IMG/VR virus record: IMGVR_UViG_2531839366_000001 | Location: 15,127 to 79,126 of that record | Reading direction: 5' to 3' (one strand) | Length of the DNA stretch: 64,000 nucleotides | DNA from: a virus | Taxonomy: Duplodnaviria; Caudoviricetes | Shown here: piece after piece, positions 4,917-8,894 of the stretch | How the letters are laid out: each line of letters opens with the position of its first letter | How positions within the stretch are numbered: the stretch's first letter is position 1 | Translations under genes and position numbers: made by a program | Notes under the pieces: model-generated | What the model saw: only the letters and a program-made list of their open reading frames with translations | What the model was told of the DNA's origin: nothing | Databases searched by the model: none

Positions 4917-5588
4917 CTAAAATGATTCTTCAGCTTCTCTTAATTTTTTAGCGTTCTCATTTTTACAAGTGACCTCTTTAATATCCCAAAACTCTCCTTT
5001 ATTAAAAACAACAACTTCTCTTTCCAAATGTAATCCTAAGGAAGAAGTATAATTCTGCTCTACTACTTCTTTAAAAGGACATAAATTCTCATAAAACAAT
5101 ATACTTTCCATAGGAACTTCTACAGAAACTTGAATCTCTTTACGATGACGGTTAGGATCAATGGAAAACGAGGATAACATATTAGTTTTTATCTTGGATG
5201 AATCTTTGTAGAAATAATCTAGTTCATTTCGATTCAATCCTCGGTATAATAATATACTGTTTGTATTAAATTCTTTTTTAAGTCTTTCTTGTGTTACATT
5301 ATACAATCGAACAATTTCTGTTTTCATAGCTTGTTCAATCATTTCATAACCTAGTTTATGTTTAATTTTATTAATAATTTTTTCTCGATAACCAAATGTT
5401 ACGTTGCAGGAAACATTAAAAGTCGAACAAACCATTTCAGTTAGTAAAAATTTTGCTTCCTGTTTATCATTACTACCACTAACCCATGAAGGTATATTTT
5501 CGAACAACTCCTTTAGTTCGGGCCAATTACCAAACATTAAGTAATCTAGATGTTTATTTTTAATATATATTCTTTCATCTAAATTCAT
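4917..5588 (-). CDS. Hypothetical protein, putative ADP-ribosyltransferase fold
   Basis: Ordered R-S-E-type motifs: LLYRGL ... LSSFS ... EREVVV. Confidence 0.5.
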   Translation of the reverse strand: MNLDERIYIKNKHLDYLMFGNWPELKELFENIPSWVSGSNDKQEAKFLLTEMVCSTFNVSCNVTFGYREKIINKIKHKLGYEMIEQAMKTEIVRLYNVTQERLKKEFNTNSILLYRGLNRNELDYFYKDSSKIKTNMLSSFSIDPNRHRKEIQVSVEVPMESILFYENLCPFKEVVEQNYTSSLGLHLEREVVVFNKGEFWDIKEVTCKNENAKKLREAEESF

Positions 5589-5655
5589 TTTATCCCCACC
5601 CTATTCCCTTAAAACTCTTAAAAGCCCGCTTTTTAGATATATAATACCTAGCTAC

Positions 5656-6330
5656 TTACCATTGAAGTGCCTCTTCTTTAATCCCTGTAATGTAATTTAT
5701 AAAATAAGGCTTTACGTATTGGCAATCATCCCATTCAATATCGACTGTCTCAATTGTATTTTCATAATCTGGGTATACCCGCCATATTTTCTGTTTCACT
5801 TTAGAGTTAACCCATAAGTCATCAAAATTACTTATTACAGCATCAAATACAAAATGTACTTTTTTCGACCTTTTATCCGCTTTTGGGAACACACCATAAT
5901 TCACTAACAATATGTATGGGACATATTTCATTGTTAATCCTTTATATAGCCAAATGTTTCTTTCATTTGCTTTATTTATCATGGATTTAAACTCGCTCTC
6001 ATATAATTTTGCTCCCATGATTTCTTGGCATTTTAAAAATGTTCCCCATAAGTTAGCTAATACTGTCTTTTTTATCTTCTCGGCGTTCACTCTGTCTATT
6101 TCAGTTGGTCCAAAATCCTCATATCTTTTACGATTTTTTAAGATGGTGGGACAATTAGATCGTTTTGGATAATGCGCGAAATGTGGTTTTTTATCTGATG
6201 TAGCTTCTGCTCTTATATACATTTCTGTATTACATACATCACAAGTGGCATCTAAACCAGGGTATTTCACTTCCCAATCTTTCACATGAATTTTCTCATT
6301 TGTTTCTGGATCAATAGCATGATACCCCAT
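5656..6330 (-). CDS. Hypothetical protein with CoiA-like N-terminal Zn finger
   Basis: CDVC...PHFAH...C motif as in CoiA-family N-termini. Confidence 0.6.
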   Translation of the reverse strand: MGYHAIDPETNEKIHVKDWEVKYPGLDATCDVCNTEMYIRAEATSDKKPHFAHYPKRSNCPTILKNRKRYEDFGPTEIDRVNAEKIKKTVLANLWGTFLKCQEIMGAKLYESEFKSMINKANERNIWLYKGLTMKYVPYILLVNYGVFPKADKRSKKVHFVFDAVISNFDDLWVNSKVKQKIWRVYPDYENTIETVDIEWDDCQYVKPYFINYITGIKEEALQW

Positions 6331-6658
6331 TACTCTTCCCCCTTAGTATTACTTATGTTTTTCTTTATTTTACCACCTAAATTTCTTTATTTTCAAAAAA
6401 ATAGAGTGTTTACCCCCTTTTATTTAATTACAATTTGAGCCTTCAGCATCACTCGAAGGAGAATCTCCACAATTACTTAGTGAATTATTACAGTAAATTT
6501 CATCGTATAGACTTATAATTATCTTATAAATTGTTGATTACAAATAGTAAACATGTTCTAAAGGGTGTATCTCTTGATACGATTCAAAATAAATATATTA
6601 ACGAATTATTTCGAAAATCTATAAAACTTTATATTCAGTAATAATAAAATAATTTTAT

Positions 6659-6688
6659 TTGCTTTATATTCTAAAAAATCGGTATAAT
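6659..6688 (+). promoter_or_regulatory. Putative sigma-A promoter of the DGQHR operon
   Basis: TTGCTT-N18-TATAAT about 65 nt upstream of 6752. Confidence 0.5.
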
Positions 6689-6751
6689 TAAACTAAACAG
6701 AAAGAAATTAACTACACAGATGTAACTATTAACCAGAGGGGGTATAATTGT

Positions 6752-7846
6752 ATGAATTTTGAGGACATAATTGACTCTACTAGTAATTACATAACAATAC
6801 ATGGTATCAAAGGAAAACAGTTTGGTCATGAAGTTATTTCAGCACAATGTACTGTGGACTATGTTTTGAAATTTCTTGAGATTGATAAATCAGTCCAAAG
6901 AGAAATGATTGAAAGACAAGTATCTAATATTAGTAAATATATTCAATACGGTTTGGATGGTAATAATATTTATTTCCCTCCTTTAATATTTTCTGCAAGA
7001 GGAAAAGGGAGTTTTCATGAGGATCAAGACCAATTTCGTTTAAAAACAGATGACACAATGGTTATATTAGATGGACAACACCGTATTCAGGCTTTTAAAA
7101 GTTTGAAGAAAAGATTAGAAAATAGTCGCAATCCTGAAGATCAAGAAAAACTAAATTACATAAAAAACTTCCCTTTAACAATTCAAATATTTAGTAACTT
7201 AGCTTTTGATCAAGAACGTCAACTGTTTACAGATGTTAATACAAAGTCATCTAGAGTAAGTAATACTCTTTTGGTTATGTATAAAGAAAATGATTTATGT
7301 GGAAATCTAGTCAAGGATATTATTTATAATCATCCATCCATTTCTCCAGATAAATTTGAAGTTCGAGCTAAAACAACAACTACTAAATTGATGACAGCTG
7401 CCACCTTATATAATATCTGCTTAACTTTAAATGATGGAATTATTATTACAAACAGTTATAAAAGTAAAATTAATGAATCTAATTATGATTTATATCGAAA
7501 AAATGTCGAAGATTTTCTCATTTTACTTATGAAATACGCTCCAGATCAATGTTTAGATAGAAATAAATACTTTATAATGAATCCAAATAGTTTACGCGGT
7601 ATTGCTAAGTGTATTCACTTATTAAGAGAAAAAAATGAAAAATTTGATATGGAAGAATTATTCCAAAAATCTGTTCGTTTAACTGATTGGTCTCATAAAA
7701 ATAAAGAATTGAAACAAGCTGGAATTCCATTTAATAATCAAACTAAAAAATATAGATTTACAGTAGGTACTCGTATAACAACTAAAATTTCTGATATATT
7801 ACTAAAACGATATGAAAGAAATGCAGGGAAGGTGCTATATGTTTGA
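6752..7846 (+). CDS. DGQHR-domain (DndB-like) protein 1
   Basis: VILDGQHRIQA, FPPLIFS, ERQLFTDVN motifs. Confidence 0.9.
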   Translation: MNFEDIIDSTSNYITIHGIKGKQFGHEVISAQCTVDYVLKFLEIDKSVQREMIERQVSNISKYIQYGLDGNNIYFPPLIFSARGKGSFHEDQDQFRLKTDDTMVILDGQHRIQAFKSLKKRLENSRNPEDQEKLNYIKNFPLTIQIFSNLAFDQERQLFTDVNTKSSRVSNTLLVMYKENDLCGNLVKDIIYNHPSISPDKFEVRAKTTTTKLMTAATLYNICLTLNDGIIITNSYKSKINESNYDLYRKNVEDFLILLMKYAPDQCLDRNKYFIMNPNSLRGIAKCIHLLREKNEKFDMEELFQKSVRLTDWSHKNKELKQAGIPFNNQTKKYRFTVGTRITTKISDILLKRYERNAGKVLYV

Positions 7847-8894
7847 AGTGAGATTAAAAGGACTTATTAATCGTATTAATGGTAATAATCAAGCTATAAT
7901 GACTACACAAATTGCTGTGAGGGATCTTTTAAAAGTTTTCATGATTGATAATTCGATTAATAGAGAAATTAATTATGCAAGATTAAAGCCTCTTTCAAAA
8001 TATATAGATTCTTTCGATTCAGATATTGGTATTTTTTTACCATCTCTTGTGTTTTCATTCAATGAAGATCCGATAAAGTATTATGACAAAGAAAGAAAAG
8101 AATTACGTATAGATCCAGATGTGAAATTAAAAGTAATTGATGGACAACATCGTATTAAAGGCTTAGAGTATTTAATACGAGATACTAGTGATATAGAAAG
8201 AAGAGAAAATATATTAGATAGCACTTTGACTGCTCAAATATATTTTGGATTAAAAGATATAGATGAAAAAAATGTATTTGTGGATATTAATTCTAATGCT
8301 AAACGAGTATCTATGTCATTAATAACTCAATATGATACTAGAGATATTATGAGAGTATTGGTGAGGGATACTTTTAATACGTGTCAAGCGCTTGAAATCG
8401 CAGGGGTAGAGTTAAGTAAAAGTAGAATTGTAAGACCAAATAATACCTTATTTTTCACTAGTGCGCGTTTAAAAAACTTTATTATTGCTTTGTTATTTGG
8501 AAAAGTTAAGATAGGTAAAAAAGGTGAAAAATTAATACAAGACAAGTATGATGATATATTAGCATTTTTAGATAAGTTTTTTTCTGTTTTATTTGATGTT
8601 CTGCCTCCTATACCTGGCGATGTTATAAAATACGTATTAGGCCATGAAGGATTGCAGAATGCAATTGCATTTTATCTACATGGAGAGATTATTGTTGAGT
8701 CTGAAAAAGATTTAATCTGGATTCCAGATTGGGAATTATCAGTAGAAAAATTAAAGTATTTTGATTGGAGTATACGGAATTCTTTATTTCAACCATACAT
8801 GATTACCTCTAAAACAATGAACGGTCAATTCCGAGCTTTTATAGATAATAGACATCAACCTTTATTAAAAATCTTAAAAAATGAATTAGCATAA
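7812..8894 (+). CDS. DGQHR-domain (DndB-like) protein 2
   Basis: VIDGQHRIKG, FLPSLVFS, EKNVFVDINSNAK motifs; likely real start MFEVRL at 7839, overlapping gene 1. Confidence 0.9.
   Translation: MKEMQGRCYMFEVRLKGLINRINGNNQAIMTTQIAVRDLLKVFMIDNSINREINYARLKPLSKYIDSFDSDIGIFLPSLVFSFNEDPIKYYDKERKELRIDPDVKLKVIDGQHRIKGLEYLIRDTSDIERRENILDSTLTAQIYFGLKDIDEKNVFVDINSNAKRVSMSLITQYDTRDIMRVLVRDTFNTCQALEIAGVELSKSRIVRPNNTLFFTSARLKNFIIALLFGKVKIGKKGEKLIQDKYDDILAFLDKFFSVLFDVLPPIPGDVIKYVLGHEGLQNAIAFYLHGEIIVESEKDLIWIPDWELSVEKLKYFDWSIRNSLFQPYMITSKTMNGQFRAFIDNRHQPLLKILKNELA

Follow-up and report, generated by a model that had tools for sequence, protein, structure and literature searches.

To our knowledge, the only role established for proteins of the DndB family is that of an accessory to a DNA-modification system (Dnd or Dpd), and their relatives have been described only as sensors to which a nuclease is fused or coupled, as in SspE, GmrSD and Menshen. 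Here we describe a tandem pair of DndB-like genes, g1 and g2, in a stretch of 64,000 nucleotides (the window) that corresponds to bases 15127-79126 of the 79,126-bp IMG/VR virus record IMGVR_UViG_2531839366_000001. Comparison with related loci indicates that what is new here is a dnd-independent, autonomous, selected and horizontally mobile heteropair of predicted ParB-NTPase/ParBDB proteins, which the genes divergent from it in the window accompany only as passengers.

DndB, the regulator of the DndABCDE system, is described in the available parts of PMC10853773 and PMC12704722 as an ATP-modulated transcriptional repressor, and the accessible text of the latter also reports a DndB-like protein that binds ATP and GTP. 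Like DndB, the pair matches the Pfam family PF14072 over nearly its full length, has the DGQHR, QR and FxxxN motifs and combines a ParB/Srx-fold nucleoside triphosphatase (NTPase) domain with a helical C-terminal domain. Unlike DndB, which is a single gene, the pair consists of two co-evolving paralogs, has neither dndC nor dndD nearby, lies mostly in genomes devoid of dndC and reaches only about one-tenth of the score required for a DndB equivalog. SspE, GmrSD/BrxU and DndI likewise place a helical domain behind a ParB-type NTPase, and their sensor logic, presented as nucleoside triphosphate (NTP)-gated DNA recognition in the part of PMC12065111 that was available, may be likened to that of the pair; however, these proteins are built of DUF262, a DNA-binding part and a DUF1524/HNH nuclease, whereas the pair has no nuclease domain and is divided into two separate paralogs. 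The same sensor build is found in NsnA of the Menshen system NsnABC, a ParB-DUF262 plus ParBDB protein according to the same partial source. With the CTP-dependent clamps ParB, Noc and KorB the pair shares the fold of the N-terminal domain and the nucleotide-binding arginine motif, but it lacks the ParB-type helix-turn-helix (HTH) and a ParA partner, has a DndB-type C-terminal domain and is a heteropair instead of a homodimer. Finally, the ParB/Srx-fold weapons Osa and ToxB indicate that this fold alone can be an effector (bioRxiv 10.64898/2026.05.05.722872, available text); as described there, ToxB does not bind DNA and resides inside CdiA toxins, whereas the pair keeps a C-terminal domain of the DNA-binding type, with no immunity gene evident. 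In the literature we found no description of a stand-alone tandem DGQHR pair, though the supplementary tables of PMC10853773 and PMC12065111 could list such loci.

Two tandem DGQHR proteins of the DndB family

The genes of the pair are the following:

6752-7846, plus strand: g1 (P0003), a DGQHR/DndB-family protein of 364 amino acids
7839-8894 or 7812-8894, plus strand: g2 (P0004), its DGQHR paralog, 351 amino acids from the ATG at 7839 or 360 amino acids from the ATG at 7812

With the ATG at 7839, which is the start used by the orthologues and in the MC28 annotation, g2 overlaps g1 by 8 nt (35 nt with the ATG at 7812), and this 8-nt overlap suggests that g2 is probably translationally coupled to g1. 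The initial annotation of the window had noted two overlapping, diverged DndB-like genes at this place, and profile searches confirmed that they are real. Both proteins pass PF14072 (99.5 bits for g1 and 95.1 bits for g2, with a cut-off of 29.1), the alignments spanning profile positions 3-324 and 15-316, respectively, of 338, as well as the NCBIfam family TIGR03187 (DGQHR; 80.1 and 80.3 bits, cut-off 58.85). The literal DGQHR motif is present in each of them, and they are 25% identical to one another across 333 residues (E 2e-22). Neither protein reaches the DndB equivalog TIGR03233 (32.9 bits for g1 and 39.5 bits for g2, with a cut-off of 328) or TIGR04172 (15.5 and 29.6 bits, cut-off 450), and no other NCBIfam family, DpdB included, was matched at E <= 1. 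PADLOC returned only weak DndB matches (40.9 and 46.9 bits), and GmrSD_N (DUF262) stayed below its Pfam threshold (19.4 and 23.1 bits, cut-off 33.2).

The motif residues are strongly conserved among related loci. In g1, all 35 loci examined share the QR, S..R, DGQHR and E..Q.F.D.N residues (100% conservation). The DGQHR motif of g2 has likewise invariant D, G and R, while Q is retained in 46% and H in 63% of loci; this loss is confined to one of the two clades defined below (clade B), and in the other (clade A) DGQHR of g2 is invariant and QR is replaced by NR. A search for effector functions gave negative results: no DUF1524 or HNH nuclease matched g1 or g2 in Pfam at E <= 1, no Pfam HTH family matched P0003 or P0004, and the two proteins showed no motif of a nuclease, of the HEPN type or of any other effector. 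The idea of a HEPN fold in the C-terminal domain of DndB, for which we refer to the portion of Makarova 2013 (PMC3632139) at hand, was considered and rejected, as the columns conserved to >=90% in the C-terminal half of g1 or g2 contain no R-x4-6-H pair. No fused or longer form of P0003 was found either, which is weak evidence.

Predicted domain architecture

The AlphaFold2 model of g1 (mean predicted local distance difference test score, pLDDT, 85.7) has two domains, a ParB/Srx-fold domain at about residues 21-167 and a helical C-terminal domain at about 170-364. The best structural matches of the N-terminal domain were PadC (Z 8.4, root-mean-square deviation 2.6, 98 aligned residues), SspE (Z 7.3) and the ParB N-terminal domain of pNOB8 (Z 7.2), followed by KorB (Z 6.5), sulfiredoxin (Z 6.2), the entry 9jfl titled DndBCDE-DndI (Z 5.9) and BrxU (Z 5.8), while Osa matched weakly (Z 3.9). 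Foldseek placed ParB-CTP structures at the top (E 1.8e-3, probability 1.00). For the helical domain, residues 170-364, no solved fold stood out (Z < 5), and a sequence-profile search of solved structures with the query A1 returned only unrelated proteins (best E 0.095). Because PF14072 aligns across this C-terminal part, the domain is homologous to the C-terminal domain of DndB, which the available text of PMC12065111 groups with the middle domains of SspE, GmrSD and NsnA as a DNA-binding 'ParBDB' domain. The models and profiles taken together, each paralog is thus predicted to consist of a ParB/Srx NTPase domain followed by a helical domain of the DndB type (ParBDB), and neither protein has an effector domain such as a nuclease.

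The pair is conserved, selected and transferred as a unit

When one genome of each species was scanned with the pattern, 56 loci were obtained, of which the 36 from Bacillales (L009-L044) were analyzed; L045-L064 match only a part of the N-terminal domain and are excluded from the counts. The 36 loci fall into clade A (16 loci, 41-95% identical to g1) and clade B (20 loci, 25-34% identical). An orthologue of g2 lies directly 3' of g1 in 35 of them (15/16 in clade A and 20/20 in clade B), the exception being L015, in which the contig ends 126 bases past g1. The tandem arrangement is also present in all four plasmid matches at >=55% identity, and the start and stop of the two genes typically overlap by 4-10 nt.

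In a quick maximum-likelihood tree of 70 sequences, g1 proteins of both clades group together, apart from g2 (SH-aLRT 98), and the duplication that gave rise to g1 and g2 therefore appears to be older than the split between the clades. Pairwise distances of g1 and g2 are strongly correlated (r 0.94 in clade A and 0.97 overall), although co-inheritance alone is sufficient to give such values. Estimates of dN/dS were 0.03-0.12 for g1 and 0.09-0.18 for g2 (three comparisons per gene). The two genes are therefore under purifying selection, and they are passed on together, both in inheritance and in transfer. The 8-nt overlap, the constant adjacency and the correlated divergence also suggest that the two proteins may form a g1:g2 heteromer.

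The pair is at the same time rare and patchily spread over plasmids, prophages, integrative elements and defence islands. At E <= 1e-40 it was found in one of 105 genomes in the family of genome G001, and 114 protein clusters (at 90% identity) were recovered among 5.8 billion. The GenBank phage collection contained a single weak match in 50,697 records, and a scan of IMG/VR with A1 returned only three weak partial loci. As an observation on the fate of single copies, the g1 gene at L021:10001-11086 is split, and the pair, located amid housekeeping genes, is apparently decaying.

The pair has neither dnd genes nor a fixed third partner

The initial annotation had noted that dndA/C/D/E are missing from the window, and a search of all 79,126 bp of the record likewise gave no dndC or dndD; a search of this 79-kb record for dndE was also empty, yet its control gave no match anywhere either. 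Among the 36 pair-bearing genomes, dndC scored above the cut-off in only three, all of clade B (0/16 in clade A), and in these it lies on other contigs (C42, C166 and C3) than the pair (C7, C38 and C2, respectively). A constant tie of the pair to dnd clusters, which would have spoken against a separate system, is therefore not seen.

In clade A, 143 of the 164 flanking open reading frames (ORFs) within 6 kb were scanned, those shorter than about 100 amino acids being dropped. Cluster analysis revealed no recurrent neighbour in this clade, and when the two ORFs following each pair were compared between loci, they proved unrelated, bar two chance-level matches with E of 0.008 and 0.06, so that no conserved third gene emerged. 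In clade B (L025-L044, e.g. L035:9944-12818), a gene of the ComK family follows the pair in 18/20 loci. Seventeen of the 20 clade B genomes have two or more ComK matches, and since in the mapped cases the linked gene scores lower (118, 124 and 145 bits) than the copy elsewhere in the genome (193, 189 and 177 bits), it is an extra paralog. The genes upstream of the pair in clade B vary and include phage replication genes or transporters. In contrast to Menshen, an NsnB-type ABC ATPase and an NsnC effector follow the pair in none of the 36 loci, the downstream genes being the unrelated ones of clade A or the ComK-like ones of clade B; the OLD-type ATPase encoded in the window at 12917-14812 is 4 kb off, on the opposite strand, and does not accompany the pair in other loci. 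The pair thus needs no dnd genes, no neighbours of the ART-like or Zn-ribbon type found in the window (see below) and no fixed third gene.

Recombinase, transposase or phage replication genes were present near the pair in 9/16 clade A loci (L009, L012, L013, L016-L020 and L022), and defence genes within 6 kb of it in 5/16. The latter comprise bSEFIR (148 bits), Septu PtuA/PtuB (649/301 bits), HsdR, a type III restriction endonuclease (495 bits) and AbiK (638 bits), and a weak UzuA-like match was also among the clade A neighbours. On plasmids, type I-C cas genes (cas5/csd1/csd2) adjoin the pair in pMC319 of B. thuringiensis MC28, while a restriction endonuclease, a DUF4365 gene and a UvrD plus AAA pair are near it in p6 of P. 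megaterium. The smallest carrier, p4 of B. cereus SB1 (L071, NZ_CP045610.2), is a plasmid of 6,941 bp, about 31% of which is taken by the pair, with four small genes besides. These neighbourhoods fit a defence or conflict role.

Two further observations concern individual loci. At L023:6893-15291, the pair and a GIY-YIG (UzuA-like) gene lie between a full spoVR and two duplicated 3' fragments of spoVR, an arrangement resembling the trace left by an insertion within or beside spoVR. In L071, a 195-aa gene annotated as MarR-family occupies the position held by ComK in clade B.

The DGQHR operon is a mobile segment with a likely promoter of its own

Upstream of the pair, two genes point in the opposite direction, and the region is laid out as follows:

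4917-5588, minus strand: P0001, ORF call of 223 amino acids
5656-6330, minus strand: P0002, ORF call of 224 amino acids
6331-6751: divergent intergenic region of 421 bp, with a mosaic junction at about 6538-6560
6396-6367, minus strand: promoter-like site for P0002 (TTGAAA, 18 nt, TG-TAAAAT), 10/12 consensus matches, a pattern match only; in the left segment
6659-6688, plus strand: likely promoter of the DGQHR operon, with a -35 of TTGCTT (3/6), an 18-nt spacer and a perfect -10 TATAAT at 6683-6688; in the DGQHR segment
8895-9141, plus strand: 3' tail of the mobile DGQHR segment, also present in pMC319

The initial annotation gave the distance between the divergent starts as about 420 bp, in agreement with the 421 bp measured, and described the pair as facing two putative effectors across this one region. 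The latter picture did not hold. According to blastn, the left segment, 4885-6544, is common to a B. mycoides plasmid (L002, 94.5% identity), while the DGQHR segment is common to pMC319 (L001) over 6538-9141 (96.5% identity) and homologous to L009 from 6560 to 8904, ending 10 bp after g2. A DNA contig of an unrelated isolate (X5) covers 6538-9095 and nothing of 4954-6493. Because the homology breakpoints (6538, 6544 and 6560) fall inside the intergenic region, we interpret it as a recombination joint that set two promoters side by side, not as a common control region; the junction at 6538-6560 splits it into two segments, each with its own promoter-like site. Repeats within the intergenic region are AT-rich and unremarkable, and an Rfam scan of 4000-11000 gave two sub-threshold matches to miRNA models only.

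The likely promoter of the DGQHR operon was read by eye from the sequence and was not listed by the consensus scan. Two metatranscriptome libraries, each from a different study, contain contigs (2372 and 2392 nt) that start at 6706 and 6715, that is 18-27 nt past the -10 element, run through g1 and g2 and end about 38-67 nt past 9095; they fit a bicistronic mRNA of g1-g2 but are suggestive only. The raw RNA sequencing reads of run X24 included none on the pair, though the strain probably does not carry it, which makes this result uninformative on expression. The two-gene operon spans approximately 6560-9100.

Possible functions of the pair

We consider it about an even chance (a probability of roughly 0.5) that the pair works autonomously, as a heteromeric DNA-binding module gated by NTP, in the conflict of mobile elements with their hosts. 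In such a mechanism, g1 and g2 would form a heteromer that would bind DNA via its C-terminal domains, while NTP binding and hydrolysis at the DGQHR sites would serve as a gate, as in ParB, KorB, DndB and SspE. The complex might then recognize and clamp or silence incoming DNA, or act through its ParB-fold NTPase. A narrower version of this proposal, which we put forward only tentatively, is that the pair is a minimal, effector-less immune or exclusion system: the heterodimer would load on foreign DNA and disable it with neither a modification mark nor a dedicated nuclease, by NTP-gated clamping or silencing or by its own NTPase, and the ComK-like link of clade B would tie the module to DNA taken up in competence.

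Several points weigh against a role in conflict. No effector domain was found, and any mechanism of defence would therefore need to be an unconventional one; apart from the weak DndB matches, no PADLOC model fits the pair. The association with defence islands is qualitative, with no background rate, and the PADLOC scan comprised 29 hand-chosen proteins. Seven of the 16 clade A loci have neither defence nor mobility genes among the scanned ORFs, the pairs of L010, L014 and L021 lie amid housekeeping genes, and in L021 (Paenibacillus) g1 is split into ORFs of 212 and 148 amino acids, showing that the pair decays in some genomes. The tree derives from a quick search only, and contigs from RNA libraries prove neither transcription nor transcript ends. 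In addition, g1 matches PHROG 1033, labelled 'ParB-like partition protein', at 131 bits.

The last match leads to the main alternative, namely that the pair maintains or regulates its carrier, as an NTP-switched repressor, silencer or partition-type complex that stabilizes or controls its own plasmid, prophage or island and leaves foreign DNA alone. ParB, KorB and Noc structures are the best fold matches of g1, DndB is itself described as such a repressor (PMC10853773 and PMC12704722, in their available parts), the pair occurs on plasmids, one of them of only 6.9 kb, and a ComK-family regulator follows it in most clade B loci. On the other hand, a ParA-type partner adjoins the pair in 0/36 loci, and the ParA gene of the window (16332-17159) lies at a distance of 7.4 kb and is followed by a small gene of its own. 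Moreover, no conserved flanking DNA travels with the pair, as illustrated by the end of L009 homology 10 bp past g2, and several loci are chromosomal, between housekeeping genes. We therefore regard carrier maintenance as rather doubtful, if well worth considering.

It is less plausible still that the pair is cargo for anti-defence or establishment, shielding incoming mobile DNA from restriction or hampering competing elements like the ParB/Srx-fold fertility inhibitor Osa. The carriers, that is plasmids, prophages and integrative elements, would suit such a task; ParB/Srx-fold proteins take part in plasmid-plasmid conflict (Maindola et al. 2014, as cited in the available part of PMC10853773), and a ParB-fold ATPase toxin exists (bioRxiv 10.64898/2026.05.05.722872, in the text at hand). 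Yet the pair is often found in chromosomal defence islands beside restriction-modification, Septu and AbiK genes, which is the typical place of a defence gene, and it is absent from the phage collection bar the one weak match, so that this explanation seems improbable.

Membership in PF14072 and TIGR03187 and the dndC genes of three clade B genomes could speak for a trans-acting accessory of a host-encoded DNA-modification pathway, as DndB is for Dnd or DpdB for Dpd. But dndC stays below the cut-off in 33/36 genomes, among them 16/16 of clade A, and lies on another contig in the rest; the scores fall far short of the TIGR03233 and TIGR04172 cut-offs, with no DpdB match; and the pair moves alone on small plasmids. 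Together these findings make an accessory role very unlikely.

The divergent genes are passengers

P0001 was introduced by the initial annotation as ADP-ribosyltransferase (ART)-like and P0002 as a CoiA-like Zn finger; both labels are weaker than that of the pair. P0001 shows the arginine, serine-serine and E-x-E pattern of ARTs, with R116 (YRG) present in 11/12 sequences, S139/S140 (LSSF) conserved and E189-R-E191 invariant, and structural leads point the same way: its Atlas structural match to DRAT-type clusters reaches a TM score of 0.64-0.67, and the fold lists consist mostly of ARTs. These fold matches are non-significant (Foldseek best E 0.027, best ART-fold Z 5.0, model pLDDT 68), and no Pfam, PADLOC or PHROG family was assigned. 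In the model, the N-terminal half is helical and the ART-like core comprises about residues 109-214. Homologues form 11 clusters, none of them from outside the B. cereus group and its close relatives, and no signal peptide is evident as read from the sequence. P0001 may thus most simply be taken for an intracellular ART-like enzyme that is plasmid cargo.

P0002 has an N-terminal CxxC...HxxH Zn-ribbon of the CoiA_N/DUF7830 type followed by a C-terminal part, and the family matches lie below threshold (DUF7830 24.5 bits, cut-off 27.5; CoiA_N 18 bits, cut-off 26.3). No other CoiA domain, the CoiA nuclease core included, matched P0002 in Pfam at E <= 1. Its Atlas feature score to clusters auto-named 'Competence protein' is 0.97, and its homologues, which stand alone as plasmid cargo and are widespread in Bacillota and Pseudomonadota, were located on 34 plasmid records (Bacillus, Lysinibacillus and Pseudomonadota). 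Their neighbours (L068-L070 included) comprise umuDC, NucA/NucB, JAB/RadC-like and cytosine methyltransferase genes, a context that resembles a leading or establishment region.

According to the initial annotation, all four genes may form one sensor-effector system. In a megablast of 4800-9000 against 72,556 plasmids, 238 records matched and none covered >=80% of the query: pMC319 contained the DGQHR half only, the B. mycoides plasmid the left half only and several plasmids P0001 only. By tblastn, homologues of P0001 or P0002 were found in 0/56 genome loci, and among 11 annotated plasmid loci four had the pair only, two P0001 with P0002 (one P0002 truncated), two P0001 only (L004 and L005, which lack both P0002 and the pair) and three P0002 only. 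The neighbourhood survey thus showed that the four genes do not occur together elsewhere. The units found singly elsewhere are 84-97% identical to the locus at the nucleotide level. These patterns indicate that P0001 and P0002 are independent passenger genes, not effectors of the DGQHR pair, and that three or more units, each mobile on its own, have come together as a mosaic at this locus, which belongs to the accessory region of a plasmid-prophage. A four-gene abortive-infection or toxin-antitoxin system, in which the DGQHR heteromer senses infection and controls the divergent ART-like and Zn-finger effectors, is suggested by the divergent layout in this window and by the residue pattern that makes P0001 plausible as an effector-like enzyme, but it is hardly tenable, as all four genes are together in 0/56 genome loci, in 0/11 plasmid loci and not in contig X5, each unit is found alone, and the junction lies within the intergenic region.

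The carrier and other features of the window

The structural genes of the window are about 81% identical to those of Bacillus phage 0105phi7-2, while its block of ParA, FtsK and replication-relaxation genes is 86-91% identical to B. cereus-group plasmids of 55-87 kb. Because phage-like structural genes are combined with a plasmid-like block, the source element is best interpreted as a B. cereus-group plasmid-prophage. About 1 kb to the left of the four genes, an IS3-family transposase is split over two frames at 2576-3807 on the minus strand (HTH 3448-3807, rve 2576-3283) and marks a recombination-prone accessory region. Downstream of the pair, one further gene resembles defence genes:

12917-14812, minus strand: OLD-type ATPase-Toprim protein of 631 amino acids, 4 kb downstream of the DGQHR pair

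The N-terminal ABC ATPase of this protein is like the PtuA/AriA models, and its residues 391-630 match PADLOC's 'RT-Toprim_I-C' models in their Toprim portion (136 bits); the protein is a probable single-gene defence nuclease carried on the plasmid-prophage. Between this gene and the pair, a 1,350-bp ORF-poor and AT-rich stretch 3' of the pair contains a hydrophobic ORF of 26 amino acids (9746-9826, minus strand), followed by a strong hairpin and T run that is terminator-like (9656-9627, minus strand). This ORF could encode a small membrane peptide or be a type I toxin-like gene, or it could be nothing. Two plus-strand ORFs of 1156 amino acids (24911-28381) and 387 amino acids (28762-29925), placed between plasmid maintenance genes and phage lysis genes, belong to no Pfam or PADLOC family.

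Implications

The model of the locus is corrected by these data: a construct of the 'four-gene system' would comprise three unrelated cargo units. The existence of that system is largely refuted, whereas the pair is a clean two-gene module that can be tested, and the right unit to clone is the two-gene operon together with its own promoter segment of about 190 bp. Being self-sufficient, mobile, conserved and under selection, such a paralogous pair would show that a ParB-NTPase/ParBDB sensor can work with neither a modification mark nor a classical effector, or that it serves a new function of mobile elements.

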